In this document: piece after piece, positions 21,241 through 63,503 of the stretch
How the letters are laid out: each line of letters starts with the position of its first letter
Position numbering within the stretch: the stretch's first letter is position 1
From: a virus
IMG/VR virus record: IMGVR_UViG_3300047160_035982
Span: 13-64,012 of that record
Length of the DNA stretch: 64,000 nt
Direction: 5' to 3' (one strand)
Made by a program: the position numbers and the translations under genes
The notes under the pieces: model-generated
What the model was told of the DNA's origin: nothing
Databases searched by the model: none
Seen by the model: only the letters and a program-made list of their open reading frames with translations

Positions 21241-22574
21241 GCGCTAGGCGGCGGCTGTTCGTGTCTCCTCGAGCGATGATGTTCAGTGCCACCGCCTCCA
21301 CCGGCCTGCGGAACTGCGGCCTTCTGGCCTCCGGTGTCGGCTGGCTTGTCGCTCCTGACGATGTCTTCCTGAAACTCCTTGTAGGTTTGCTGCTCGGTCG
21401 AGGGCGCGTTGTAGGGATACTCGGTGCGCCGAATCACGTTGCCGTCCGGAGGCGGCGGGGTGAAGACCGGCACCTGATTGGTAGTGTCAACCGGCCCGAG
21501 CGGCTCGATGATGCGGAAGCCCAGAACGTCAAAGGGCATCGGCAGCGGCAACGAGGTCAGCCGGTAGAACATATGGTTGTGCTCCTCATCGCCGTAGACA
21601 AACGGCACACGGGCCTGGGTGTAGGTCACGAAGCGCCCGGTGCGCTCGTCCTCCAGTTGGGTGTATGCGCCGTAGATGATCCGGTTCTGGATCGTGGTCG
21701 AAGCCAACAGGACCAAGTTAGCGGGCAGCATGGGAAAGAGGTTCCCCACGTCGTCCTCAAACCACTCAGCATAGGTGTAGAGCTGCAGGCCGGGTAGCTG
21801 TCCGAAGATGGTCACGGCCGGATCGACGATCTGCGGGATCAGGGTGCCCATCTCGAACCGGCGATTGTTGAGCAGGTCGTAGACCTTCTGGTTGCGGGTG
21901 AACACGTTCGCGGCCTCGGTACCGAAAAGCGCCACGTTGGGGTTGACCCCGGAAAGGCGGACCATATTGAGCCGTGCCGTCTCGATGTCGAGCATCGGGT
22001 CACTGTTGGGCTGGTTCCACTGGATGGCGGGCGTCTCCCGGTTAGTGACCGGGCCAGCCGCGCTCTCCATGTAGTTGATGACCATCCGGTAACCGTCATC
22101 GGCGGTCACGATGATTGCGCCGTTGATCATGACCTCACGGCACATCCATTCCTCGCGGCGGCTGATCGCTTCGTCACAGAACACGGCGTCCTCGGCCATC
22201 AGCTCGGCGGCACGGTCAGCGGCGGTACGGCCCGAATAGATCGATTCACCCATCATCCGCATCTCGGCCTCGATGGCCCGCAGGTTGCGGACCGGGGCCA
22301 CGCGGGGTGCCTGATAAAACCTTGTTTCCCATCCTTTGCGCTCCATCGCTTTTCCCCCGATGAGCGGAGCAACGAACGGGGCCATCTGTCTGCGCCCGCG
22401 CCGGAAATCAAACTCCACCAAAGCGGTCGGAGGAAAGCGGCGGTCTTGGAAAAACGTGTCCCGCAGAAAGGTGTGGATCAGCGGGCCTTCGTCGAAGGGC
22501 TCCAGCAGCGTCCGCACATCGTAGATGTTCGGGTGCGGGTACTCGGTATAGAGCGGATTGACTTGAGTCGGCAT
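21237..22574 (-). CDS. Major capsid protein (lambda E family)
   Basis: FLRDTFF, EFDFRRGRRQMAPFV, ISRREEWMCREVM motifs; preceded by a decoration gene. Confidence 0.9.
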   Translation of the reverse strand: MPTQVNPLYTEYPHPNIYDVRTLLEPFDEGPLIHTFLRDTFFQDRRFPPTALVEFDFRRGRRQMAPFVAPLIGGKAMERKGWETRFYQAPRVAPVRNLRAIEAEMRMMGESIYSGRTAADRAAELMAEDAVFCDEAISRREEWMCREVMINGAIIVTADDGYRMVINYMESAAGPVTNRETPAIQWNQPNSDPMLDIETARLNMVRLSGVNPNVALFGTEAANVFTRNQKVYDLLNNRRFEMGTLIPQIVDPAVTIFGQLPGLQLYTYAEWFEDDVGNLFPMLPANLVLLASTTIQNRIIYGAYTQLEDERTGRFVTYTQARVPFVYGDEEHNHMFYRLTSLPLPMPFDVLGFRIIEPLGPVDTTNQVPVFTPPPPDGNVIRRTEYPYNAPSTEQQTYKEFQEDIVRSDKPADTGGQKAAVPQAGGGGGTEHHRSRRHEQPPPSA

Positions 22575-24211: not shown

Positions 24212-26079
24212 CGGATGAATACTCCGGATAGGCCGCTGGCCAGCGTGGCGCGGCGATAGGCCTTGCTCTTGAAGTAGGCACCGGGCACCGGAGGCGGTGC
24301 GTTAGGGGCGGGTGCGCCCCGGCTGGGCGGGGTCGTCTGCGGCTGGGCGCTGGGTGCGCCTCCAATCCCGGCCCCGGCTCCGCTCGGGCGGTAAGGCGGA
24401 TAGTAAAGATCGACTTCCTCGAATTCATCCCGTTCGACGGCCTGCTGGGCGATGTTGTCCCGGTAGTTCGACCCGTTCATCTCAAAGCTCTCCCGCTCAA
24501 CGGTGGAGTAACCGCACTTGACCCGCAGATCGGCGGCGACCACCTCGCGGTTCGGGTCAAGGCTCCCGGCGCTCGCGCCCGTCCAGACGCAGCCGAGCAT
24601 GGCGCGGCGGACGTAGGGATCATCCCAGCCGCCCCGGAACCGCTCGATGCGGCCCAGGCTGATAGCGTCGGCCAGCCACTCCTCGTAGATCGGCTGGCAC
24701 CACTGATCGATCATCAGCGCCCGATACTTCCGCACCCGTTTCCAGAACTCCAGTATCGCGGCACGGCTCGCCGAGTAGGAAGCGGTGAACTGCTTGAGCA
24801 GCACCTCGTAGGGAATCCCCAGCGCGGCACCCAGAATCTTGGCCATCGCAATGATGAAGGATTCGAAGGTTGTCGGCGGTTGGGTCGGGCTCGCAAACGA
24901 CAAACCGTGGCCCGGTTTCATGAGGTTGACGATCCCCGGCCCCAGCTGAACGTTGTAAGGGTTCATGTCGAAGATCTCCCGCTTCTGCTGCTCGGTCAGC
25001 AGCGAATCGAGGATCTCAGCGCTAGGAAACTGGCTGGTGATGAAGGCGGTGAAATAGGATTGGATCACCGCTGCCACGACGGTGGAATCGATGTAGCGCC
25101 CGCCCTGTTTCAAAAGTTCCAGCACAATCGCCAGGAGCGGCACGCCCCGCCGCTGCTCCGGTCGCCACGGGCGGAACATCATCAGCATGTTGCGCCTGCC
25201 GGTCACCTCGCCGTAGGGTTTGACCCGCACCGTCTCATACGGACCCCAGCCGCCCAACCGGGTGGTCTGTCGGCCCATGCGTGAAAGCGGATGCTGATTG
25301 GCGATATGGTAGGCGATCAGCTCGCCCTCCTCGCTCATCTCAACCCCGTTGAACACGGTATGGCGTCCCTCGATCAAGGCCTCCTCGTCCTCAAAGGAAA
25401 GGTCAAGGTCTTCAAAGATCCCGGCTGGCGCATAGCCGTTGCCGTTCAGCCAGCCGCCGTTGCCGTTGTAGCCGTAACCGGAATAGGCGGACGGGTCGCG
25501 GACCCGGTCGCTTTCGAGGATGCGAATCCGCAAGTCAAAAAGAGTTCCGGCCCGTGGCCGCAGCGGAAGCAGTGTCGGAGTATCGCCACTTAGCAGCATG
25601 GTCTGCAACGCCAAGCTCTGTTGCTCGTAGAAGGAAAGCCGTCCCTCGAAATCGCTCTCGCGGGGGTCGCCCGCCCACCAGTCAAACTTGGTCCCGATCT
25701 CCTGATTCAAGGCGGATGTCTCATCGGCGCTCATGCCCAGCAGCTCGCCGTCTACGCTCGGCGCTGGAATCAGCCCTTCGCCGATCACGGCGGTATCGAG
25801 GGTTTCGATGGCGGCGGCTCCGAACGGGATACCCATGAAGGCGTCCCGCGAGCGTTCGCGCAAAACCTGGATGTTTTCCCCGATGTCGGTATCGGCATCG
25901 CCGCCGCGCCAGAGCCAGCCGATCATCGAGTTCTTGGTCTGGTTCGCGCCGTAATTCGAATAGCCGGTGGCCCAGACCGGCTTGGCCCGTCCGTCGATCA
26001 GGACGCCGCCATCCGAACTTAAGATGGTGCCTTTGGCAAACTGCTCTGGAATTCGGCTAGACATCGCGTAAGACGGCAC
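24208..26079 (-). CDS. Portal protein, lambda family
   Basis: LRERSRD, RPEQRRGVP, YSASRAAILEFW motifs. Confidence 0.92.
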   Translation of the reverse strand: MPSYAMSSRIPEQFAKGTILSSDGGVLIDGRAKPVWATGYSNYGANQTKNSMIGWLWRGGDADTDIGENIQVLRERSRDAFMGIPFGAAAIETLDTAVIGEGLIPAPSVDGELLGMSADETSALNQEIGTKFDWWAGDPRESDFEGRLSFYEQQSLALQTMLLSGDTPTLLPLRPRAGTLFDLRIRILESDRVRDPSAYSGYGYNGNGGWLNGNGYAPAGIFEDLDLSFEDEEALIEGRHTVFNGVEMSEEGELIAYHIANQHPLSRMGRQTTRLGGWGPYETVRVKPYGEVTGRRNMLMMFRPWRPEQRRGVPLLAIVLELLKQGGRYIDSTVVAAVIQSYFTAFITSQFPSAEILDSLLTEQQKREIFDMNPYNVQLGPGIVNLMKPGHGLSFASPTQPPTTFESFIIAMAKILGAALGIPYEVLLKQFTASYSASRAAILEFWKRVRKYRALMIDQWCQPIYEEWLADAISLGRIERFRGGWDDPYVRRAMLGCVWTGASAGSLDPNREVVAADLRVKCGYSTVERESFEMNGSNYRDNIAQQAVERDEFEEVDLYYPPYRPSGAGAGIGGAPSAQPQTTPPSRGAPAPNAPPPVPGAYFKSKAYRRATLASGLSGVFIR

Positions 26080-41169: not shown

Positions 41170-41439
41170 ATGAACAATGGAGAGATGCGCGGCTTCCCAA
41201 CCTTGAAATTTCAGTTCGCGAAAACGATGCCGGACATCCCGCATTTTTACGTGGTGCGGAGCCCGGACAACGAGGCTGATTACGTCAAGCTGTTCACGCT
41301 GATCGGCGAGCAAGGCGTCTGGGGAGAGTTCCAGGGCCGACGCTATCAGTACCTTTACCTGGGCGGCTGGAAGTATTGGCGCATGACTGATCACCTCAAA
41401 TTCAGCCGGATAATCAACCGGGCAAAAGCGGGGCAATGA
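41170..41439 (+). CDS. Conserved hypothetical phage protein
   Basis: FAKTMPDIPHFYVVR...YLYLGGWKYWRM...IINRA; coupled to the next gene. Confidence 0.6.
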   Translation: MNNGEMRGFPTLKFQFAKTMPDIPHFYVVRSPDNEADYVKLFTLIGEQGVWGEFQGRRYQYLYLGGWKYWRMTDHLKFSRIINRAKAGQ

Positions 41440-42554
41440 AGAACGAGAATTACCTCGCAACTAACGTTTTCGAGGAGGCCATCAACCGGATCAATTTTGT
41501 CTATGACAATTGCGACGACGTAATTGTCTCGATGAGCGGCGGGAAAGACTCAACCGTCGTCTTTCAGCTCTCAATGCGGATCGCCACGGAGCGCAGGCGC
41601 CTCCCGCTCAAGGTCTACTGGCTGGATCAGGAAGCCGAATGGCAGGCGACCGGCGATTACATGCGGGGCGTCATGTACCGGCCTGACGTGCTGCCTTTCT
41701 GGTTCCAGATCCCGTTCCGGCTCACCAACAGCCTGTCGTTCAAGGACAATTACCTGCACTGTTGGGACCCAAATGAGCGTGAGAAATGGATTCGGGAACA
41801 GGACCCAATCTCGATCAAGGAGAACCCGACTCATTTCGACCGCTTCCATGACGTGATCACGCACCTGCCTTCCTACTGTGATTGCGCCGACAAAACCCAC
41901 GTCGCTGTGCTGGTCGGGATGCGGATTCAGGAGAGCTTGGTCCGGCGCATGGGGATCGGCTTTGCCAAGAGCCAGTTCAAGGGCATCACGTGGTGCCGGA
42001 AGCCGGTCGCTAACACTCGCGTTTTCTGGCCCATTTACGATTTTCATGATACCGACATCTGGACCGCGATCGGTAGCAACGGCTGGCCCTACAACCGGAT
42101 CTATGACTACATGTACGCTTGCGGCTCGCATATGCGCGTGTCTGCGCTGATCCACGAAACCGCTTGGTCCCACATCCGCGACCTGCACGAGTTCGAGCCG
42201 CAGATCTACGACCGGTTCCTGCTCAGAGTGAACGGCGTCAATTGCTTCGATCATTTCGACGATGAAGTCATGCCGCGGACGCTCCCGCCCTATTTCAAAG
42301 ACTGGCAGGAGTACCGGGATTACCTGTTAGAGAATTTGATCGAGCCCGAGCACCACGAACGGTTCCGGAACCGATGGAAAAAGCAGCACGGAACCGTCTG
42401 GTACAAAAATCACGTCAAAGAGGTTATGGTGAACGACACGGACGGCACGCTCAACCAGAACGCCCGCAGCCGGATCAAAAAAGAGGCGCGGAAAAACGCC
42501 GGGTACTACCGGGCCAAAGACGAGAAAGCTTTTGCGGAGTTTATCAAACAATGA
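41436..42554 (+). CDS. PAPS-reductase-like PP-loop protein (IbrA/YbdN family)
   Basis: SMSGGKDS PP-loop, WLDQEAEW, LVGMRIQES, FWPIYDF, MRVSALIHE. Confidence 0.85.
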   Translation: MKNENYLATNVFEEAINRINFVYDNCDDVIVSMSGGKDSTVVFQLSMRIATERRRLPLKVYWLDQEAEWQATGDYMRGVMYRPDVLPFWFQIPFRLTNSLSFKDNYLHCWDPNEREKWIREQDPISIKENPTHFDRFHDVITHLPSYCDCADKTHVAVLVGMRIQESLVRRMGIGFAKSQFKGITWCRKPVANTRVFWPIYDFHDTDIWTAIGSNGWPYNRIYDYMYACGSHMRVSALIHETAWSHIRDLHEFEPQIYDRFLLRVNGVNCFDHFDDEVMPRTLPPYFKDWQEYRDYLLENLIEPEHHERFRNRWKKQHGTVWYKNHVKEVMVNDTDGTLNQNARSRIKKEARKNAGYYRAKDEKAFAEFIKQ

Positions 42555-42723
42555 TCAGAAGCTTCTACCGGACACGGTTCTTGATCGCCCTGGTCAACGG
42601 CGTTCCGCTTCTGAGCGCCCTAGTGGCCAGTCTGCCGATCCCGCCCGCCGTGGACACCTCTTGCATGTTCGCTTTGATGGACGCTGGATTCAGCCGCCGC
42701 GTCAGGTTTCTGAAGAACTAACC

Positions 42724-43365
42724 ATGAACGAGCATAATCCAGTCTCAAACGTCCGCTGGGTACCGATAGAAAAGGTGCACGCCAACGATTACAACCCGAA
42801 CTCAGTGGCCTTGAACGAGCTGCGGCTGCTTTATGTCTCGATTCGCCACGACGGGTACACCATGCCCATCGTCACCGTGCACGACCCAAAGCGCGACCGC
42901 TACATCATCGTCGACGGCTTCCACCGTTACATGATCATGAAGCGCTACCGGGACATTTACGAACTCAACCAGGGCCATATTCCGGTGGTGGTGATTGACA
43001 AGGACGTCAATGACCGGATGGCCTCCACGATCCGGCACAACCGGGCTCGGGGGAAGCACGCCATTGCGGGCATGAGCCAGTTGATCTTTGAGATGTTAGC
43101 TAACGGGTGGACCGACGCCCGCGTCTGCGATGAGCTGGGCCTTGAGAAGGAAGAGTTTATCCGGCTCAAGCACATCACCGGGTACGCCAAGTTTTTCGAG
43201 CATGGCAAGTACAGTCAGGCGCGGATGACCACCAAACAGATCGAGGAAAAGCTCAAGTTTGAGCAGAGCAAAACAAATGAACTGGAACAAGGACGACACT
43301 CTAAAAGCAGATCAAACCGGGCATCCGGTGCTGTGGAGCGAAACGCTCGCAACACTCGGGTATAA
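42724..43365 (+). CDS. ParB/Srx-like protein (IbrB/YbdM family)
   Basis: NDYNPNSV, GYTMPIV, IVDGFHRY, MASTIRHNRARGKH. Confidence 0.88.
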   Translation: MNEHNPVSNVRWVPIEKVHANDYNPNSVALNELRLLYVSIRHDGYTMPIVTVHDPKRDRYIIVDGFHRYMIMKRYRDIYELNQGHIPVVVIDKDVNDRMASTIRHNRARGKHAIAGMSQLIFEMLANGWTDARVCDELGLEKEEFIRLKHITGYAKFFEHGKYSQARMTTKQIEEKLKFEQSKTNELEQGRHSKSRSNRASGAVERNARNTRV

Positions 43366-43813
43366 CGTGACCTACCCGCAGTTGGACCCGGTTTGGTTCT
43401 TCGAATTCTGGGGCGATTGGAAGAGCACGAGACGCCTCAAAACCTTTGGCCACAAAGACCCCAAAGATAAGACCTCACCGCATTTTCTCTGCACCCGAGG
43501 CGGTACGGTGATGCACACCGATCCGGGGTTCGTCCGCTATGCGCTCCAGATCCAGCTTTACAACGACGGCTTCGTTGTCCACGGCCTGGAAGACGACCTC
43601 GACCTGATGCCGCTCTTCAATCCGGGGCTGGTCATTCTGCTGGATACGTGGTCGCCGCATCAGGTGAGCCGGGATCGCCGGCTGGGCAAGGCTGGCCCAA
43701 ACAAGCTCCTCATCGGGATCGACTTCCTGCACCGGCCTGATATCGACACGGAGCTACCAAAGCTGGTGGAGCACATTCCAACCCTGACTTTACCGACCAA
43801 TGGAGATCGTTAA
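43277..43813 (+). CDS. Possible Fe(II)/2-oxoglutarate dioxygenase (cupin fold)
   Basis: HTD...H pattern (MHTDPG ... TWSPHQV) in a beta-rich sequence. Confidence 0.45.
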   Translation: MNWNKDDTLKADQTGHPVLWSETLATLGYNVTYPQLDPVWFFEFWGDWKSTRRLKTFGHKDPKDKTSPHFLCTRGGTVMHTDPGFVRYALQIQLYNDGFVVHGLEDDLDLMPLFNPGLVILLDTWSPHQVSRDRRLGKAGPNKLLIGIDFLHRPDIDTELPKLVEHIPTLTLPTNGDR

Positions 43814-44327
43814 GGAGATCAAGCTGGTGCCGGTCATGGAGATCCGGCCATACCATCGCAACGTGCGAATCCACGAGAAGACCGTCGAGGAGCTGGTCAA
43901 GGTGATCCCGTACGTAGGGTTCAACGTTCCCCTGCTCCTTACCCGCTCGAACGTCATCGTTAAAGGACACGCTCGGTGGAAGGCCGCAATCCAGTTGGGC
44001 CTGGAGCGCGTGCCGTGCGTTTACACCGATTCCGATGAGGAGCTGATCAAGCTCGACCGGCTGACCGATAACAAGATTCAGGAGTTGTCAGACTGGGATG
44101 ACGAGATGCTGCCCTCGGAGCTGGCCAGCCTGAACCTAGATTTCGAATTTGACCTGAGCGCACTGGGCTTCAACCTCAGCCTGCCGTCGGCCATCGAGAC
44201 AGAGAAACTTGAGTCGGAATCCATCACCGACGAGGACGTGCGCAAGACCGTGCCGATGAACATGGACGAGTACGAAAAGGTGATCTGTTCCAAGTGCGGC
44301 AACCAGATGTTCATCAAGAAGGAATGA
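43800..44327 (+). CDS. ParB N-terminal domain protein with C-terminal CxxC
   Basis: IRPYHRNVRIH...GFNVPLLL...IVKGHARWKAA; CSKCG. Confidence 0.8.
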   Translation: MEIVKEIKLVPVMEIRPYHRNVRIHEKTVEELVKVIPYVGFNVPLLLTRSNVIVKGHARWKAAIQLGLERVPCVYTDSDEELIKLDRLTDNKIQELSDWDDEMLPSELASLNLDFEFDLSALGFNLSLPSAIETEKLESESITDEDVRKTVPMNMDEYEKVICSKCGNQMFIKKE

Positions 44328-45431: not shown

Positions 45432-45460
45432 ACCATAGCGCAACTGTTGCGCATTGTCAA
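45432..45460 (-). promoter_or_regulatory. Sigma70-like promoter with operator
   Basis: TTGACA-N17-TATGGT; operator 45439-45451. Confidence 0.75.
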
Positions 45461-45507
45461 GTGGGTAAAAGTTAGTTTCTTGTTAGAAAACGTTAGGTGG
45501 ACTGCTC

Positions 45508-45535
45508 TTGACATTGCGCAACTGTTGCGTATAAT
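45508..45535 (+). promoter_or_regulatory. Consensus sigma70 promoter with operator
   Basis: TTGACA-N16-TATAAT; operator 45517-45529. Confidence 0.8.
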
Positions 45536-45558
45536 AGCACCTTTACTAACAAAGATGC

Positions 45559-45587
45559 CTGACCAGTGCGCAATTGTTGCGTATAGT
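45559..45587 (+). promoter_or_regulatory. Sigma70-like promoter with variant operator
   Basis: CTGACC-N17-TATAGT; CGCAATTGTTGCG 45569-45581. Confidence 0.6.
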
Positions 45588-45870
45588 TAGAGACATGGAG
45601 AACATGAAAAGACTAACCAAAATTACCATCGCTCACAAAAGCGACGATCCCGAAAAGGAGATCGAACTAATGGATCGACTGGACGCGGTCTTCGGCGAAG
45701 ACCCGGAATATCTCGGCCCCATCCAAATCGGACGGCATGGTCGGGACTACCGGGAGATTATCTACCACGTCTCCCCCATCCATAATCAGGAGCAGGTTAT
45801 CTCCATCGCCCTCCGCATCTACGGCCTGGACCTCTACGAAGTGAAATGTGAGGACCACAATGAAAACTGA
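45574..45870 (+). CDS. Hypothetical protein
   Basis: ORF downstream of the tandem promoters; real start probably ATG 45595 or 45604. Confidence 0.5.
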   Translation: MLRIVRDMENMKRLTKITIAHKSDDPEKEIELMDRLDAVFGEDPEYLGPIQIGRHGRDYREIIYHVSPIHNQEQVISIALRIYGLDLYEVKCEDHNEN

Positions 45871-45988: not shown

Positions 45989-47155
45989 TCATGCTGTTTT
46001 GAATGCGACAACCTTCCCGTCCTCAGTTGGCCTAATTCCGAAGTAAGCCAAAGCTTCCTCTTTCGGGACGCCGGCGAGATAGTGACGCCCGAGCATCATC
46101 ACGCCCAGGTGCCCCATTCTCAGCGAGGTCAACGGCACGTCATCGTACATCGCGACGTGGTAGCTGGCAAAGGAATGCCGCATCCCGTCCTGAATCCACT
46201 TGGACCCGGCGATCTTGTTGGCGCTGACACGAACATCGCGGAGCTGCTTGTTGGTGAAGGGAAGCACCTTGCCTTCCACCTTACCGCCGCGATCCCGGTA
46301 CGCCATGAGCCACGCCATCGCGTTTTCAGGGATTTCAACTTGGCGTCCGCGCCGTCCGCCCTTGGCGACCTTGGCCCGGATGTTCAGCCTGGCGCGAGCC
46401 CAGTCAACCGCGCTCCACTCAAGCGCTCCCATCTCACCTTCGGGCCGGACACCGCAGAAGAATCCAAGCGTGAAGTACGGCACGAGGTTCAGCTCATACT
46501 CGAGCGCGTACTGCAGATATTTGCTGACCGTGCTTACCGGGTAGATCTCGACCTCACGCGGTGCGCCCGTGTCGGGCATGTCGAGCCGATCGATCGGGTT
46601 CTTGCCAGCCGCCAGAAACTCTTTGCGGATGGCGTAATTGAAGATGGCCCGCAGGTGACGCATGTGCTGGGCGCGGGTGGTTTCAGGGATCAGTCGCAGG
46701 ATCTCCCAGAAGGCGTCACTGCTCACGTCCTGAATCTGCTCATCTCCAAGAGGCGTGAATTTGCTCTTGGTGCCGCGCAGGCTCCTCCAGTACTTGGTAT
46801 CCGGCTTGGCCGCAACCTCGATGTAAGCGTCGCAGGCCTCGGCAAAGGTGCGCTCTGGCAGGCGGTCGGCCTGAGCCCGTAGGAAGAACCGGACAGCCTC
46901 CAGCACGTTGAAGCCGTTACCGGCCTCGTCCAAGAGCTGCTTGGCGTGAAGGAAATCGCGGGACTCGCTCCCGCTCAACGTGGCGATGACTTCGCGGGCC
47001 TCGGGCGTGCCGCGCTCGAATTCAAGCAGCGCGGCCTGCGCTTCCTCCTTGGTCGCGTAGTAGCGCCGGACAGGTTTACCCAAACCCGTGAGGCGTGGTG
47101 GAAGCCAGAATCCCCACGGCTTGGGTCGTCCCGGTGTTTTAGAGATTGTAATCAC
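45989..47155 (-). CDS. int: Tyrosine integrase (prophage)
   Basis: GVRPEGE (R), MRHSFASY (RH), RMGH, RHY (Y); adjacent to the att site. Confidence 0.92.
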   Translation of the reverse strand: MITISKTPGRPKPWGFWLPPRLTGLGKPVRRYYATKEEAQAALLEFERGTPEAREVIATLSGSESRDFLHAKQLLDEAGNGFNVLEAVRFFLRAQADRLPERTFAEACDAYIEVAAKPDTKYWRSLRGTKSKFTPLGDEQIQDVSSDAFWEILRLIPETTRAQHMRHLRAIFNYAIRKEFLAAGKNPIDRLDMPDTGAPREVEIYPVSTVSKYLQYALEYELNLVPYFTLGFFCGVRPEGEMGALEWSAVDWARARLNIRAKVAKGGRRGRQVEIPENAMAWLMAYRDRGGKVEGKVLPFTNKQLRDVRVSANKIAGSKWIQDGMRHSFASYHVAMYDDVPLTSLRMGHLGVMMLGRHYLAGVPKEEALAYFGIRPTEDGKVVAFKTA

Positions 47156-47160
47156 GGCGA

Positions 47161-47189
47161 AGTATAGCGCAACTGTTGCGGATTGACAA
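47161..47189 (-). promoter_or_regulatory. Integrase promoter with operator
   Basis: TTGTCA-N17-TATACT; operator 47168-47180. Confidence 0.7.
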
Positions 47190-47354
47190 CCCCATGTTAT
47201 AAATTTGTTACAATTTTCTGTAATAACTTTATTACAGCGGGTGGGCTGCCTGTAAGAATTTGTAATATTCTAATGTCTGCGGGGCCGGACACAACCTGAT
47301 TTCTCAGGACTCTCCACGAGGGAAATGGCTTTTTCCCTAGGCGCGGGCGGCTGT

Positions 47355-47412
47355 CTCGAAATCAGGCGTACGGGTAACCGTACCGTGGGTTCGAATCCCA
47401 CCCCTTCCGCCA
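47355..47412 (+). pseudogene. 3' half of tRNA-Ser(CGA): prophage attR and satellite attL
   Basis: CTCGAAA loop, TCAGG, long variable arm CGTACGGGTAACCGTACC, T-arm GTGGG-TTCGAAT-CCCAC, CCCTTCCG-CCA; no acceptor 5' strand or D-arm upstream. Confidence 0.85.
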
Positions 47413-47949: not shown

Positions 47950-49101
47950 ATGCACGACCGATATTCCGATACGCTCGACCACCCGAGGACTCTGCTGCCG
48001 ACGACTCAACTGCCCGATTTCAGCCGTAATTTCGCAGAGCTCGAGAAGCGTTGTAAACGCCCCTATTCGATCCTCAAGGTTGTCCGCGCCCTTTCGGACA
48101 AGCCGTCGCGCTTAGAAGGTTTCGAGGCTGAAGTCGACCAAGAGCTGAAGTCGTTGAACCCACGGCGCAGCGTAGATGGAATATTGATCCCGCTCGAGGC
48201 ATTAGCAGTATCGCGCCGTGACTTGACGACAGGCGTGCTGCCAGTGATCCAAACGACAATTTCACCAGATGAGCCTATCCCGTTTCTGCGGGTGAAATCT
48301 GTCTGCGCCCGTTGCGGAGCGACGCTGCTCGACGGGTTGACTGGCGGCAATATTTCACTGCCTAGAGCTTATGCGACTGCAGGTGCTGGGTGGTACGGCG
48401 AGGTCGGTCCGGTCCCGAGCGCTGACCAGTCTCTCGATAACATTACACTTTCGCCGAAACTGATCGCTGGCTCGACGATCGTCTCGAATCAATTACTCGC
48501 GCAAAGCTCGCTCGATATCGAGAGATTTGTTACCCGCGATATCAGCGACGCAATCGCGGTCGCGGTCGACCAGGCTGCGCTCTACGGCGCAGGCTCGGCG
48601 ACGGTGCCAAAGGGGATCATGAGCTACGCGGCAAACGGCGCAGGCAACTACAGCTACGGGCTGCGATCCGCTAGTCAGTCTTTTGGCGGAGCGGCAACTT
48701 GGGCTGCTGTCTTGAGCTTCGAAAAAACGCTCGAAGACGGGCGAATCCAGAACGATGGCACTTTCACCTTTGTTTCGACATCAGCAACGCGCACAAAATG
48801 GCAGCAAATCGCCAAGGTCGCGACTTACCCCGAGTTTCTATGGCAACAGCGCGACGACGAGTTGGACGGTCGCGTAAACGGCCGGCGCGCAGTTTCGAGC
48901 GCGCAAATCAGCGGCGACATCGTGCTCTGCGGAAAATTCTCTGAAATGATTCTTGCGAACTGGTTAGGAGTCGAACTTTTAGTGAACACGTACAGCCGCG
49001 CGATCAACGCTGAGACCGTGATCCTTGCCACGATGCTGTGCGACGTCGGGATTAGATATCCATTAGCGTTCTGCGCATCACTGGACTCAGGGGCTCAGTA
49101 A
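47950..49101 (+). CDS. HK97-fold major capsid protein (satellite)
   Basis: GATLLDGLTG.NISLPR, WYGE, ITLSPKLIAG...SNQLLAQSSLDIE, AVDQAALYG. Confidence 0.88.
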   Translation: MHDRYSDTLDHPRTLLPTTQLPDFSRNFAELEKRCKRPYSILKVVRALSDKPSRLEGFEAEVDQELKSLNPRRSVDGILIPLEALAVSRRDLTTGVLPVIQTTISPDEPIPFLRVKSVCARCGATLLDGLTGGNISLPRAYATAGAGWYGEVGPVPSADQSLDNITLSPKLIAGSTIVSNQLLAQSSLDIERFVTRDISDAIAVAVDQAALYGAGSATVPKGIMSYAANGAGNYSYGLRSASQSFGGAATWAAVLSFEKTLEDGRIQNDGTFTFVSTSATRTKWQQIAKVATYPEFLWQQRDDELDGRVNGRRAVSSAQISGDIVLCGKFSEMILANWLGVELLVNTYSRAINAETVILATMLCDVGIRYPLAFCASLDSGAQ

Positions 49102-49108
49102 GATCTTA

Positions 49109-49240
49109 GGAAAAACGAAAAGGCCAGCTTTTACACTGACCTTTTCTCCATGCATTGCCTCGCCAGACCGCGCCCAGCCATACCACGCCAAAGCGAGCCT
49201 TGCCGTGACGTCTTCAATATCGACTCGTTTGAATCACGCT
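49109..49240 (-). ncRNA. Orphan (NN-GGY)10 pentamer tract with flanking hairpins (putative guide D)
   Basis: Ten RCC-NN pentamers at 49157-49206; hairpin 49117-49146 whose loop CCAGCTTTTACACTGA resembles 58021-58037. Confidence 0.75.
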
Positions 49241-51602: not shown

Positions 51603-51834
51603 AGACCGAAACGCGCTTTCGGCGCGTCAGTGCGTGATGCGCACTCTGACGATGGTCGTCAGCCAACTCTCAACACAGAAAAACGAACATGATAATCTTG
51701 CTCTATTTACTGCTGCTCGCGCTCGCAGTGAGAGCTTTGCGCTCGGCCAGCACGCCGATAGGCTGCCTGAGCTGGGTCGTGCTGTTCGCGATCATCTTTA
51801 TGTTTCTAAGCACACGATTTTTTCATCCAGCACT

Positions 51835-58007: not shown

Positions 58008-58373
58008 AGAATGCCGCCGACCAGCTTGTTAAACTGATCGGCGGACTTCCATGCCAACGCCTTGCCTTGCCCGACCACCCCAGGCCTCACCCGGCCTCAC
58101 CTTGCCCGGAATGCCGCTGTCTGCTGAACAAGCCAAACAGCGGACTTCCATGCCATGCCTCGCCTTACCGGGCCGGACCCCGCCGCGCCACACCTGGCCG
58201 CGCCAAGCCGTACACTGCCCTGCCTTGCCGCGGAATGCCGCCCACTCTTTGCGAATGAGCGGACTTCCATGCTTTGCCTTGCCCGACCACGCCGCGCCAA
58301 AACGCGCCAAGCCCAACCTGGGCGTGCCTCGCCGGGGAATGCTGCCGACTCTTCCTTTAATCGGCAGATTTCC
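58008..58373 (-). ncRNA. Array of three (NN-GGY)n pentamer tracts separated by four conserved hairpins (putative guide RNA array)
   Basis: Tracts A 58053-58107, B 58152-58231 (16 pentamers), C 58271-58335 (13 pentamers); hairpins 58008-58050, 58108-58149, 58232-58268, 58336-58373. Confidence 0.88.
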
Positions 58374-58384
58374 ACAGCCTGACT

Positions 58385-59095
58385 TCACGCGTTCACTAAC
58401 TTTTGACGTTTCATCCATTGAGTTAAAGCCTGCTCAAGTTTCAGTAATGCCTCGACTGTGTCGTCGTCATCAGCCTCGATGTAATCGTCAGTAAGCAGGA
58501 TTGTTAGATCATCAGCCAACTTAATAACCTTTTGTCCACTGAGCGAGCGTTGGCGTTCGTCGATTGCTTTCACTTCTTTTTTGATCCACTGCTCATCCTT
58601 GCTCTGCATCTTGATCTGCAGCGGTTCAACTAGAGGCGCTTTTAAAACAACAGGTTTGACTGCGTCCGAGTCACTCCACACGCCGCGTTCACTAATAGCT
58701 TTCTCGAATTCAGAAACCGGGATGCGCACGATCTTGGCAATCTCCTCTGAAGAAAACTTCATGCGGGTTAACTGCATCGCTGCACTAAGCTTTTCCTGAT
58801 AGCTGAGGCCGTGACCGTGTGTGGCGTTGTCTTTAACGGCTAAAGGGAACCATTGTGTTTCGAGCTCTTTGGTTACGATTGCAGCGATCCGCGGCAACTT
58901 CCTTCGTCGGTGCGCCTCGTATCGGTGACGGCCTCCGATAATCACATAACGATCATCGCGTTTACCAACGAGAATCGGTGGCAAAACATCGCCTACGCGC
59001 AAGGCATCGAGCAGCGACTCGATGTGTCTCCAACTAACTTGATTGCGCGGATAGATCGTCTCATCAATCAAAATTCGGTCGATGCTGATATACAT
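58385..59095 (-). CDS. ParB/Srx N-terminal domain protein
   Basis: IYPRNQVS...LPPILV...YVIIGGRHRYEAH...NATHGHGLS. Confidence 0.8.
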   Translation of the reverse strand: MYISIDRILIDETIYPRNQVSWRHIESLLDALRVGDVLPPILVGKRDDRYVIIGGRHRYEAHRRRKLPRIAAIVTKELETQWFPLAVKDNATHGHGLSYQEKLSAAMQLTRMKFSSEEIAKIVRIPVSEFEKAISERGVWSDSDAVKPVVLKAPLVEPLQIKMQSKDEQWIKKEVKAIDERQRSLSGQKVIKLADDLTILLTDDYIEADDDDTVEALLKLEQALTQWMKRQKLVNA

Positions 59096-59098
59096 AGG

Positions 59099-59743
59099 TC
59101 AGGCTGCCTTTCTCTTTTTAGATTTCTTTTCTTCAAGAATCGTCGGCTCTGAATCGAAACCGACAATCTCGGGTTCAGGAATAAAAGCTTCTTCGCGCTG
59201 CGGCAACAACTCGAAGCGTTTTAGGTAATACTGCCCAAATGGGCCTTTCTTCTCTGGTCGAAAATCGCAGACGCCATTGAGCACTCCTGCAGTTTTGATT
59301 ATTTGCGGCCCAAATTTCTGCATGATGGGGATCGGAATCCATTCATCGCGGAAGTGCAGCTCAAACGTCACCTCCCACGGCCAGATCTTCGGTCGGCTAT
59401 GTGGCACGCGATTTTTCTGAATGACGACTGAGCGCGTATCGATCTTGTACTCTGTCGTGTTCAACGAAACGAATTCTGGCGTGATCGCGACACAACCGAT
59501 CATCGCTGTCGACATTTTCAACTTGCCGACTTTATAGTTGCCAGCAGCCTTAATGAAAGACCGGTAGAACGCTACCCCAGGAATCGCCAACGAGGATTTG
59601 TCGTCGGTCCAGTATAAGCGCTTTCTTGCTTCCTCAGCTGGATCGTAACTGACTTGCTTAACGCTCGTCTCACTGTTCATCGAGCTGATGTTATTCAATA
59701 AAGCGGGGGTCAACCCGCAAACTGTAATTTTGATTTGTCTCAT
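59099..59743 (-). CDS. RAMP/Cas7-like RRM protein (Vipr-like effector)
   Basis: ITVCGLTPALL (beta1), LAIPGVAFYRSFIKAA (IPG-helix), RPKIWPWEVTFEL, Gly-rich loop AGVLNGVCDFRPEKKGPFGQY. Confidence 0.75.
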   Translation of the reverse strand: MRQIKITVCGLTPALLNNISSMNSETSVKQVSYDPAEEARKRLYWTDDKSSLAIPGVAFYRSFIKAAGNYKVGKLKMSTAMIGCVAITPEFVSLNTTEYKIDTRSVVIQKNRVPHSRPKIWPWEVTFELHFRDEWIPIPIMQKFGPQIIKTAGVLNGVCDFRPEKKGPFGQYYLKRFELLPQREEAFIPEPEIVGFDSEPTILEEKKSKKRKAA

Positions 59744-61613: not shown

Positions 61614-62213
61614 TCATGTAATCTTCGATCGACGAGTGGCGTTGCGCAGTTTTGACAGCCCAGCTTTTTTGAAGAGACGCGCCCATTCGGATGATGTCTT
61701 TGGAATTCGTAAGCCGGCTTGCTCGAAAATCTCGACTGCTCTCTTGCGCACTTCCTTCTTGAGCGGCCAATCGTTCTCGTCGTCACCTTTGCACAAGTCA
61801 CGAAAAGCAATCATCACGACGCGCACGCCGTGCATGTCAGGTTCTGGGGATTGAGCGAGTCTGACAGTGTCAATCAACGCTCGCAGGATTTCGTCTTCCT
61901 TATAAAACACGGCAGCAAGGATCAGCTCTTTGAAATCTGCAATGAATACGCGGTCATCGCATGACGGATGCGTATTTGTTATTCTGAACCACGGGGCGAA
62001 TTCCGGGTTTTGTTTCGCGTATTGTCGCCACCTTTGTAATTCCTGCCAGATCTCGGTCCGAAAGACGAATTTCGTATCCGTGTATCGTTTGACCGCTTGC
62101 AAAAATTCCCGTGGATAGTTTTTCCCGACATCGGTCATTTGATGTCGCAGTAAGGAGTAACGACCCCAAAGCGACCTCGGCAAATCATGCGAAGAGTATT
62201 CGTCGTCGCTCAC
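61614..62213 (-). CDS. Hypothetical protein
   Basis: 199-aa ORF coupled to the integrase stop. Confidence 0.5.
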   Translation of the reverse strand: MSDDEYSSHDLPRSLWGRYSLLRHQMTDVGKNYPREFLQAVKRYTDTKFVFRTEIWQELQRWRQYAKQNPEFAPWFRITNTHPSCDDRVFIADFKELILAAVFYKEDEILRALIDTVRLAQSPEPDMHGVRVVMIAFRDLCKGDDENDWPLKKEVRKRAVEIFEQAGLRIPKTSSEWARLFKKAGLSKLRNATRRSKIT

Positions 62214-63376
62214 TGTTGCCCCTCCAATTTCGGCAAGCGCGGGATGAGCTGCGTTGCTGCTTTGATCGATTCGAGGTCTTCGTGGATGTAGCGATCGACG
62301 GCACCGCCAGCGGCGTGGTTCGTAACTCTGCGCGTGATCTCGCGAAGCGACGCTTGGTTGAACACGTTACTCGCTGCGGTATGGCGAAAACTGTGAAACG
62401 AGAGCGCTCGCACAGCTCGCCCTTTACCCGTGTTGCCTTGACGCAGCAGACGCTTTTCGATTCCTGCCTTATCGAGCAGCTCGACAAAACATATCGAAAG
62501 ACCGTGTGCGCCCTTAATGCCTTTATTCGCCAAAGTGGGAAACACCGGCGCGTCAGGATCGTCGGGCACGGGGCGACTGCTCAACCAATCGAGAAAGTCA
62601 GGGTGCAGACCGAGACACGCCTTCGCATTTGTCTTTTGCTCGCGGAATGTGACGATCGAGTTCGCGACATCGAGGTTCGACCATTTGAGACTCTTGCAAT
62701 CACCGAGCCGCGCCCCGGTGCCGTACGCGAACAAGATCAGCCCTTGCCAATCCGAGTCGGCGATCGAGAGCAGAGCGGCGATTTGATCTCCCGTGAATGT
62801 CTCTTTCGCAAGCGGCTCGCTCTTTTCGGGCGTTGTCGCCATGACAGGGTTGAAACGAAGTTTGCCGATCTTTCGCGCTTTCTCGAAGGGCGCCGACAGG
62901 TACTTGCGGATCAGTTTGTTGATCGTCGCTGACGATCGCCCTTCTTTACGCAAGAGTCGGACGAACCCTTCGATGTCTGCGGTCGTGATCGATTCGAGCC
63001 GACGCGTTGCCCCGCGTTCACCGAGATAAGCAATGAACTCGTCGACCGCTTGCCCGTAAGCTTCGAACGTCGATGCAGCGATTTGCCCCTCTTTCGAGTC
63101 GAGCCATTCGCGCAACCAGTCCTTTACGCTGACGTATCCGATCGTCGCTGCGCCGATGCGTGCGAGCGTCTCGTTCAGGATTTGCAGAACTCGATCGTGC
63201 GACAACTCGACGTTTACAGCAGCGTCCTCGGCGGCCTGCCACGCTTCGGTGATGATCTTCGCCTTGTTTTTGTCACGAGTTTTGGTTGAACGCCAGACAC
63301 GTCGACCGTCAGCGAGGCGCAGAGCGGCGTACCAGACACCTTTCGGCGAACGCGGATTACGATGAACAGAAGCCAT
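62210..63376 (-). CDS. int: Tyrosine integrase (satellite)
   Basis: TGARLGD (R), SFHSFRHT (HxxR), VTNH, DRYIH (Y); adjacent to attR. Confidence 0.92.
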   Translation of the reverse strand: MASVHRNPRSPKGVWYAALRLADGRRVWRSTKTRDKNKAKIITEAWQAAEDAAVNVELSHDRVLQILNETLARIGAATIGYVSVKDWLREWLDSKEGQIAASTFEAYGQAVDEFIAYLGERGATRRLESITTADIEGFVRLLRKEGRSSATINKLIRKYLSAPFEKARKIGKLRFNPVMATTPEKSEPLAKETFTGDQIAALLSIADSDWQGLILFAYGTGARLGDCKSLKWSNLDVANSIVTFREQKTNAKACLGLHPDFLDWLSSRPVPDDPDAPVFPTLANKGIKGAHGLSICFVELLDKAGIEKRLLRQGNTGKGRAVRALSFHSFRHTAASNVFNQASLREITRRVTNHAAGGAVDRYIHEDLESIKAATQLIPRLPKLEGQQ

Positions 63377-63476
63377 GAACTACAGAACGACATACAGAAC
63401 AAAAACTTTAAATACAGTTTGTTCCAGAACATCCAACTCGCTCGCGGATAGGTACTTACGAGAGAGCAAAAACGTT

Positions 63477-63503
63477 CCGTGGGTTCGAATCCCACCCCTT
63501 CCG
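63477..63503 (+). repeat. attR of the satellite (27-bp tRNA-Ser 3' duplicate)
   Basis: Identical to 47383-47409. Confidence 0.93.

Follow-up and report, generated by a model that had tools for sequence, protein, structure and literature searches.

A probable VIPR system with a ParB-like accessory gene on a satellite-like element found in soil metagenomes

Examining 64,000 nucleotides of a virus record (IMG/VR IMGVR_UViG_3300047160_035982, positions 13 to 64,012; this whole stretch is called the window), we found a compact minus-strand locus that is very probably a VIPR (Viral Interference Programmable Repeat) system; its most likely function would be to silence related rival elements and spare self. 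The VIPR class is described in three bioRxiv preprints (10.64898/2026.04.26.720920, 10.64898/2026.04.26.720927 and 10.64898/2026.10.15.759431), the first of which date from April 2026. Such a system combines a RAMP protein that stands on its own (Vipr) with an accessory gene (vap) and guide RNAs (vrRNAs), which consist of GGY/NN repeats followed by a structured 3' tail and skip every third base of the target. An initial annotation of this DNA, made from the sequence letters, had compared the locus with VIPR systems; the class exists in the 2026 preprints, and the description fits. In minus-strand order, a 214-aa open reading frame (ORF; 59743..59099) is followed after a 3-nt gap by a 236-aa ORF (59095..58385) and then by about 380 nt of non-coding DNA. 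The parts of the system are:

59099..59743, minus: vipr gene, 214 aa, lone RAMP/Cas7-like guide-binding protein, assigned by family profile and fold
58385..59095, minus: vap gene, 236 aa, ParB/Noc/KorB-like, with an N-terminal ParB domain, a helix-turn-helix (HTH) and a helical C-terminus
58336..58375, minus: tail-only hairpin lying after the vap stop codon and ahead of guide vr1, folding like the vrRNA tails
58232..58335, minus: vrRNA 1 (guide vr1), 13 NN-GGY units (58335..58271) and hairpin tail (58270..58232)
58108..58231, minus: vrRNA 2 (vr2), 16 NN-GGY units (58231..58152) and hairpin tail (58151..58108)
58008..58108, minus: vrRNA 3 (vr3), 10 NN-GGY units (58108..58059), a 6-nt GTTGGC unit and hairpin tail (58052..58008); its first base is common to the preceding tail, that of vrRNA 2
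49108..49206, minus: solo vrRNA 4 (vr4), 11 NN-GGY units (49206..49152), an ATGGA-initiated hairpin of other sequence and a T-run (terminator-like)

Judged from its sequence and predicted fold, the 214-aa protein is a Vipr, a minimal Cas7-like RAMP. No model in Pfam, NCBIfam or PADLOC matches it, and a family profile (A1) based on 15 metagenomic homologues has a single match among solved structures, the 'SUSP1 Vipr protein' (PDB 36pp_D), over the full length at E 5.7e-16. The AlphaFold (AF2) model (predicted local distance difference test, pLDDT, 81) finds its best solved folds in Csm3/Cas7 subunits (Foldseek against PDB, probability 1.00), and among clusters of the AlphaFold database it matches X1U2U4, A0A661D0E2, A0A0F9A1L0, A0A1F4YLN4 and A0A2D6XG06 at ranks 1, 2, 3, 5 and 6. 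These five entries are the starting set given in the text of the VIPR discovery paper (10.64898/2026.04.26.720920). Profile and fold together bear out the RRM protein with RAMP features proposed in the initial annotation, and the Foldseek comparison of 59099-59743 with Cas7/RAMP proteins, which it had named as a check, placed Csm3/Cas7 on top. The residues that contact GGY in SUSP1 Vipr according to the cryo-electron microscopy paper (R138, D177, W178 and R179) align with R117, D160, F161 and R162 of the window protein; within the A1 family, R117 and R162 do not vary, and conservation of D160 is 90% or more. SUSP1 H17 aligns with N17 in the window protein, a position that is His in remoter relatives. 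Residues 180-214 (59099-59203) form a 35-aa C-terminal extension in which the conserved motif FELLPQREE..PEPEI.GFD precedes a basic end. Only the closest clade (P0001-P0007) has this extension, which is predicted to be disordered (pLDDT 46-61) and might be a docking peptide.

The non-coding DNA holds three arrayed tracts of 13 (vr1), 16 (vr2) and 10 (vr3) NN-GGY units read in 5-nt steps, and a scan of the whole window gave one further such tract, vr4, on the same strand 9 kb from the array. By the published definition, a vrRNA has no fewer than 4 YNNGG units in tandem, usually 9-16, in which GGY is conserved and NN is hypervariable. When the four tracts are pooled, 43 of 50 units are canonical NN-GGY; the two N positions have entropies of 1.93 and 1.97 bits, against 0.38, 0.38 and 0.96 bits for G, G and Y. 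The best 8-unit window reaches 8/8 at the array, compared with a maximum of 6/8 across 50 block shuffles. A coding origin of the tracts is excluded because their period is 5. Owing to its variable NN positions, the array escapes Tandem Repeats Finder. Rfam holds no family matching the array or the tails. The tracts called C, B and A in the initial annotation are vr1, vr2 and vr3, with equal NN lists save for one extra first unit that we count in vr3, and its observation is confirmed. Its tract D exists as vr4, with 11 units, but lies at 49206..49152, outside the locus it delimited (58008-59743).

Two irregularities of the tracts can be noted here. The 5-nt register is interrupted by a 6-nt GTTGGC unit immediately ahead of the tail, in vr3 (58053-58058) and in three of the four guides of the nearest related locus, L107 (1330-1938), and the last four NN units, GT CG AA AA, are common to vr1 and vr3, which suggests duplication of guide ends. 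Elsewhere in the window, two plus-strand stretches within a prophage (24294-24358 and 22192-22231) reach 5-6/8 NN-GGY in G+C-rich coding DNA; their scores fall within the shuffled range, and we judged them to be chance and not guides.

Each arrayed tract is followed by a hairpin of 39-45 nt that starts ATGGAAGTCCGC and ends GCGGCATTCY. The array has four copies of it, one at the end of each tract and the tail-only copy (58375..58336) ahead of vr1, so the conserved hairpins that the initial annotation saw as separating the tracts are more than separators. They fold 3.5-5.8 standard deviations better than shuffles (z -3.5 to -5.8). An RNAalifold consensus of the tails from the window and the related loci L002 and L004 gives a 14-bp helix with a 2x2 internal loop, in which compensatory changes occur at five pairs and all but one of the 14 pairs stay intact throughout. 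Many of the pairs are G-U, and therefore the structure is one of RNA from the minus strand. The leading tail-only hairpin probably acts in processing or marks a boundary. L002 and L004, whose arrays are located upstream of vipr, lack such a hairpin, which suggests that it may separate the mRNA from the first guide. The arrays of L002 and L004 fit the published layout, in which, according to the text of the VIPR papers, each vrRNA consists of a tract and a 3' tail. Rfam also gives a weak type II hammerhead match at 51604-51668 (plus strand), inside the satellite-like element: the match scores 25.9 bits (E 0.17), below the gathering score, and no NN-GGY array lies at this site. vrRNA arrays interspersed with hammerheads are known in other VIPR types from the text of the discovery paper (10.64898/2026.04.26.720920).

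The association of guide tracts with vipr is conserved among relatives. We collected 103 loci encoding Vipr relatives from metagenomes, IMG/VR and assemblies, and in 97 of them NN-GGY tracts lie beside vipr on its own strand, with none on the opposite strand. The identical type of hairpin tail occurs in the two closest clades, L107/L001 and L002/L004/L109. In the nearest relative, L107, whose Vipr is 78% identical (82% when 172 columns of the tree are compared), the parts follow one another as they do in the window, with vipr, vap, a tail-only hairpin and four guide-tail units. A vap homologue adjoins vipr in 12 of 104 loci, and a quick Vipr tree places the window with ParB-linked Viprs alone (supports 99 and 96). 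The ParB-linked loci form a few well-supported clades outside a large ParB-less clade, with 4 changes of label on the tree compared with 13.2 in shuffles. Guides of L002 and L107 find no site in the window beyond the levels of permuted guides, so no cross-targeting was seen between these loci and the window. Four soil sequencing runs contain exact fragments of the locus as well as other contigs that share only tail segments and have unlike flanks. The latter are compatible with related arrays carrying other guides, and as they are too fragmentary we did not use them.

Two other architectures were seen among the more distant relatives. One ParB-linked clade has long arrays of 5-14 tracts without tails (L003 11321-11791, L099 7348-8175, L100 7354-7962 and L102 6180-6513), in which nothing but a shift of the register by one base, at a GAGGAC or AGGGAC unit, parts each guide from the next. 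These arrays may correspond to the 'staggered' or punctuated architecture mentioned in the text of the discovery paper (10.64898/2026.04.26.720920). In the ParB-less L065 (6786-7835), a PD-(D/E)XK/Cas4-like nuclease gene (Pfam E 1.5e-21) lies downstream of vipr and the array and is a possible nuclease-type vap.

Guides were decoded with the rule from the VIPR papers, in which NN pairs are read with one skipped base between them, without gaps and on both strands. Three of the four guides then have a site in the window itself, all within the element's own genes:

58827..58864, minus: vr1 near-self site in vap, 21/26 NN, skipped base at codon position 3
48676..48722, minus: vr2 near-self site in the capsid gene, 23/32 NN, skipped base at the wobble position
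48892..48923, minus: vr4 near-self site in the capsid gene, 17/22 NN, skipped base at the wobble position

The vr1 site (58864..58827) scores 21/26 against 16 for the next best, and 1 of 2000 permuted guides does as well; the vr2 site (48722..48676) scores 23/32 against 19, with 18 of 2000 permuted guides as good; and the vr4 site (48923..48892) scores 17/22 against 15, with 77 of 2000. For vr3 the best window score is 15/20 and the next 14, a level reached by 1336 of 2000 permuted guides, so it has no site above chance in the window. Skips of 0, 2 and 3 bases gave only the trivial match of the array to itself. In all three sites the skipped base always falls on codon position 3. The vr1 site covers vap codons 78-90, including the invariant A86, V87 and N90, and the vr2 site covers capsid residues 243-258, including the invariant F245, W251, F257 and E258; the decoded sites are the most conserved stretches of the vap and capsid proteins. 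The in-window hits claimed for tracts B, C and D are thus real by permutation and specific to a skip of one, but they are near-self sites with 72-81% of NN matching, and none is perfect. In silico, these matches support the decoding rule rather than identify the true targets, since they are sub-threshold or borderline self sites.

Where the guides depart from the element's own genes, they do so toward relatives. Decoded as peptide, vr1 reads P-E-T-Q-W-F-A-L-A-V-R-(K/N)-N, compared with L-E-T-Q-W-F-P-L-A-V-K-D-N in the element's own vap product, and three of the four differing residues (P, A and R) are common among vap homologues. In every vap homologue tested, the best vr1 site is the homologous one, at an offset of 231 nt, with 18-19 NN matched versus 21 in the element's own gene. 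The vr2 guide reads (I/M)-S-F-G-G-P-A-T-W-A-(K/N)-V-L-L-F-A, compared with Q-S-F-G-G-A-A-T-W-A-A-V-L-S-F-E in the element's own capsid protein; its P, N and L-L residues are found in a capsid clade about 54% identical to that protein. The one member of this clade whose DNA was compared, L152, matches vr2 at the homologous site at 28/32 (87.5%), compared with 23/32 for self. More distant capsid genes of IMG/VR match vr2 at 24-26/32 in 26 of 41 cases, while on this set permuted vr2 guides reach at most 24, once per 200, and other skip lengths at most 21. Searching IMG/VR with the capsid protein alone returned no related loci, and searching with a capsid alignment returned only homologues of 25-38% identity. 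These comparisons incline us, somewhat more than evenly, to a model in which the guides would be aimed at kin alleles of conserved genes, with the element's own copies set apart by a few non-synonymous differences. The initial annotation had proposed use against competitors, and this appears to fit, given that the guides decode to sites within capsid and vap genes and that vr2 matches a rival allele better than self.

Several observations weigh against such rival targeting, and some of them favor a different use of the same VIPR machinery, in which vr1, and perhaps vr2 and vr4, would act on the element's own genes, so that vap and the array are under negative feedback and the capsid gene stays silent until induction. 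The best match of vr1 in all DNA examined is the element's own vap, and at 81% it meets the published 80% target threshold; the array moreover lies downstream of this site, both vr2 and vr4 match the element's own capsid gene, and vr4 sits directly behind it. The vr2 site is a conserved motif, and homology accounts for part of its matches to other capsids. For vr3, the best scores of 15-16/20 are at chance level in the window and about 1.1 Mb of related loci, and exact-pattern scans of IMG/VR with the full vr3 guide and with 9-unit cores of vr2 and vr1 gave 0 matches each. The peptide decoded from vr4 fits the capsid allele P0057 at 10/11 residues versus 7/11 for self, a comparison made at the level of peptide and not of DNA. 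Even so, this fit, the higher score of vr2 on the foreign L152 allele than on self, and the mismatches between vr1 and its own vap, which are non-synonymous and run toward residues common in homologues, all argue against self-regulation, as do the published systems, which have no self matches of 80% or more and spare self. We therefore think regulation of the element's own genes unlikely.

The absence of a perfect target in IMG/VR would also be expected if the guides were evolutionary relics, copies or near-copies of kin gene segments without living targets, whose near-self matches would record no more than their origin; the loss of GG in 7 of 50 units and the four final units common to vr1 and vr3, suggestive of duplication, point the same way. 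We regard this as quite improbable, since the vipr and vap reading frames are intact, compensatory changes keep the tails, the 28/32 match of L152 comes from a metagenome assembly, the element and its variants are present in many soil metagenomes, and the searched databases sample the VIPR family thinly. That a ParB-like gene stands directly beside a repeat array raises the question of whether the pentamer tracts act as DNA, as iterated centromere or parS-like sites for the adjacent protein. In about 90 related loci such arrays accompany vipr without any ParB-like gene, the tracts are strictly strand-specific relative to vipr, the G-U pairs of the tails pair only in RNA of one strand, and the NN positions are hypervariable, all of which makes a DNA role highly improbable. 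Finally, the Csm3/Cas7 subunits at the head of the solved-structure matches would suit a decayed CRISPR-Cas remnant (type III or IV) with a surviving lone Cas7, a reading that we find barely credible: the neighboring genes scanned have no match to cas families in Pfam, NCBIfam or PADLOC, no CRISPR-type repeat family was found between 20 and 64 kb in the window, the closest relatives in sequence and fold are Vipr and not Cas7, and the array has a period of 5 nt. These results agree with the lack of cas genes and of a CRISPR repeat noted in the initial annotation.

What the analysis shows is the homology and fold of the proteins, the layout of the array, the covariation of its tails and the statistics of decoding; transcription, assembly of the ribonucleoprotein, silencing, the role against rivals and any role of the ParB-like protein are inferred. 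The solved SUSP1 Vipr offers a model of action. The three arrayed vrRNAs are probably co-transcribed with vipr and vap, and the hairpin tails and the leading tail-only copy would mark the unit boundaries, with vr4 having its own terminator-like tail. By analogy, Vipr protomers would coat each vrRNA, one per pentamer, holding and flipping out GGY and presenting NN. The NN dinucleotides would then pair with the target strand of duplex DNA, skipping every third base, and the resulting R-loop or triplex would block transcription. Neither Vipr nor Vap resembles a nuclease, and therefore repression rather than cleavage is expected; the term 'nuclease-free' used in the initial annotation agrees with this, no nuclease domain having been found in either protein.

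The initial annotation had recognized a ParB-like gene in vap, and this holds. The vap product matches Pfam ParB_N (PF02195) at 30.5 bits, against a cut-off of 26.3 bits, as well as ParB, Noc and RepB models of PHROGs and NCBIfam. The AlphaFold (AF2) model (pLDDT 83.6) has as its best Foldseek matches ParB and Noc bound to cytidine triphosphate or diphosphate (CTP/CDP) and the RK2 repressor KorB, over 200-228 columns spanning the N-terminal and HTH domains, and the vap family profile aligns with ParB residues 9-155 at E 5e-8. The canonical motifs of ParB proteins for CTP binding and hydrolysis read Q-P-R in box I, GERRxRA in box II and ENLQR in box III. The family conserves P16-R17 of box I, G55, H57 and R58 of box II and N90 of box III, and the catalytic Gln and Glu of Myxococcus xanthus ParB (mutated in 7bnr and 7o0n) are replaced by Tyr and by Leu or Asp. 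In the texts of the VIPR papers, figures and supplements aside, ParB is not mentioned, and DNA binding is predicted for vaps in types II, VI and VII; in SUSP1, a different protein, Vap1, enhances protection or is needed for it according to the same texts. We speculate, with low confidence, that the ParB/KorB-like Vap could be a nucleotide-gated DNA clamp loaded or retained at the Vipr-vrRNA R-loop or triplex. The guide would then serve as a programmable 'parS', silencing would spread or be locked beyond a footprint of about 40 bp, and the ParB-linked clade would be a distinct VIPR type used by a satellite against the capsid and VIPR genes of its kin. Two further ParB-like genes (42532-43365 and 43800-44327) lie in the prophage, in a plus-strand cluster at 41436-44327 that begins with a PAPS-reductase-like gene (PHROG E 1.9e-81); this cluster is IbrAB/DNA-modification-like and unrelated to the VIPR vap.

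The element that carries the locus is bounded by two 34-nt direct repeats, 94% identical, that bracket 16.1 kb:

47950..49101, plus: HK97-family major capsid gene, Pfam PF05065 E 1.4e-32, PHROG major head protein
62210..63376, minus: tyrosine integrase of the element, Pfam Phage_integrase and SAM-like domains
47376..47409, plus: left 34-nt direct repeat (repeat family D9), resembling a tRNA/tmRNA 3' end, element boundary
63470..63503, plus: right 34-nt direct repeat, 94% identity to the left copy, element boundary beside the integrase

Between the repeats, this unit contains the integrase, DUF3102 and DUF2786/DUF7168 genes, vipr-vap-array, a small HTH gene, a RepB-primase-like gene, an AAA_25 helicase, an HNH endonuclease, a sigma-like gene, vr4 and the HK97 capsid gene. 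Apart from the helicase it has no ORF of the size of a large terminase subunit (TerL) or portal, and no large terminase, portal or tail genes were found among the ORFs examined, which did not include every small ORF. To its left lies the prophage, whose own unrelated integrase (45989-47155) is directly beside the left repeat. A cf-PICI-like capsid-encoding phage satellite is expected to have an integrase, a replication module of its own and a capsid gene, to lack large terminase, portal and tail genes, and to depend on a helper phage. By its gene content the carrier resembles such a satellite, integrated next to a prophage in tandem, and the satellite named in the initial annotation is a plausible carrier. 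The source is a virus record, and the element and its variants are present in many soil metagenomes; the listed public runs with the locus are all soil metagenomes, labelled 'DNA?', and none is recorded as RNA.

The ends of the two elements have features in common. The two tyrosine integrases (45989-47155 and 62210-63376) are of equal length, 388 aa, without detectable similarity, and each stands just left of one copy of the 34-nt tRNA/tmRNA-like repeat; it thus looks as if two unrelated elements in tandem share one attachment core. The window contains no intact gene for a tRNA or tmRNA corresponding to the repeat, and the Rfam tmRNA match at 47320-47412 is weak, below the gathering score. A 26-nt motif with the palindrome GCGCAACTGTTGCGC occurs in four copies, at 45435-45590 and 47164-47189, flanking the prophage integrase gene; these are probably operator or arm-type binding sites and remain putative as such.

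The VIPR class is months old, and bench work has been limited to the SUSP1 and Pseudomonas fulva systems. The soil clade of ParB-linked Viprs joins it to a well-understood family of clamps and so gives a testable idea of what a vap does, and a complete VIPR on a satellite-like island rather than on a phage is a new carrier. The capsid motif and the rival vap, as decoded targets, would extend the 'codon-reading, escape-proof, self-sparing' logic from its recombinase target. In addition, the near-self sites (72-81%) and the rival site (87.5%) are natural substrates for measuring NN mismatch tolerance, which decides how VIPR systems avoid autoimmunity.

Among known systems, the closest comparison is type II VIPR (Escherichia phage SUSP1 and a P. 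fulva prophage; PDB 36pp). Both have a lone Vipr in which the residues contacting GGY are conserved, with vap as the next gene downstream, vrRNAs of 10-16 units with structured 3' tails, a one-base skip on the wobble position and carriage by mobile elements; targets in rival elements, VIPR genes among them, are proposed for the window too. However, the window Vipr shares no more than about 24% identity with the LESphi2 homologue, which we used as a proxy for the P. fulva clade, and LESphi2 falls elsewhere on the quick Vipr tree, with the window in a separate well-supported clade. The window vap is ParB/Noc/KorB-like, whereas the gene after vipr in Pseudomonas phage LESphi2 has no ParB domain; the window tails are interrupted hairpins of simple form, the array begins with a tail-only hairpin, and Vipr has the 35-aa C-terminal extension. 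Type II, one of seven types in the discovery paper, is marked by Vipr placement in the SUSP1/P. fulva clade and an accessory gene of the vap1 type. Tree placement and the ParB-like vap thus set the window apart from it, and we do not assign it there.

The conflict between phages and satellites described in 10.64898/2026.10.15.759431 shows the same logic as proposed here. In that work self matches are below non-self matches, vrRNAs are aimed at the VIPR genes of rivals, and self is spared in the SUSP1 family. The window has in common with it a solo vrRNA set apart on a satellite-like element, a reading of the codon periodicity of conserved genes by the guides, guides on the VIPR genes of relatives and a self match lower than the non-self match. 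There, however, the phage has vipr and the satellites have only solo vrRNAs, and the target is an excision recombinase; here, the whole system sits on the satellite-like island, and the guides decode to capsid and vap genes.

The two proteins can also be compared with their wider families. Like the CTP-dependent clamps ParB, Noc and KorB (PDB 7bnk, 7nfu and 8qa8), the window Vap has an N-terminal ParB domain and an HTH, with P-R in box I, G-x-x-R in box II and Asn in box III, but the catalytic Gln and Glu are not conserved in its family, no ParA partner is recognizable, and its context is a guide-RNA system and not plasmid partition. The window Vipr has in common with the Cas7/Csm3 backbone of class 1 systems an RRM core, a thumb and a glycine-rich loop, and is expected to polymerize on RNA with fixed periodicity. 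In contrast to that backbone, its register is 5 nt and not 6 nt, and it stands without CRISPR repeats, Cas5/6/8/10/11 or adaptation genes.

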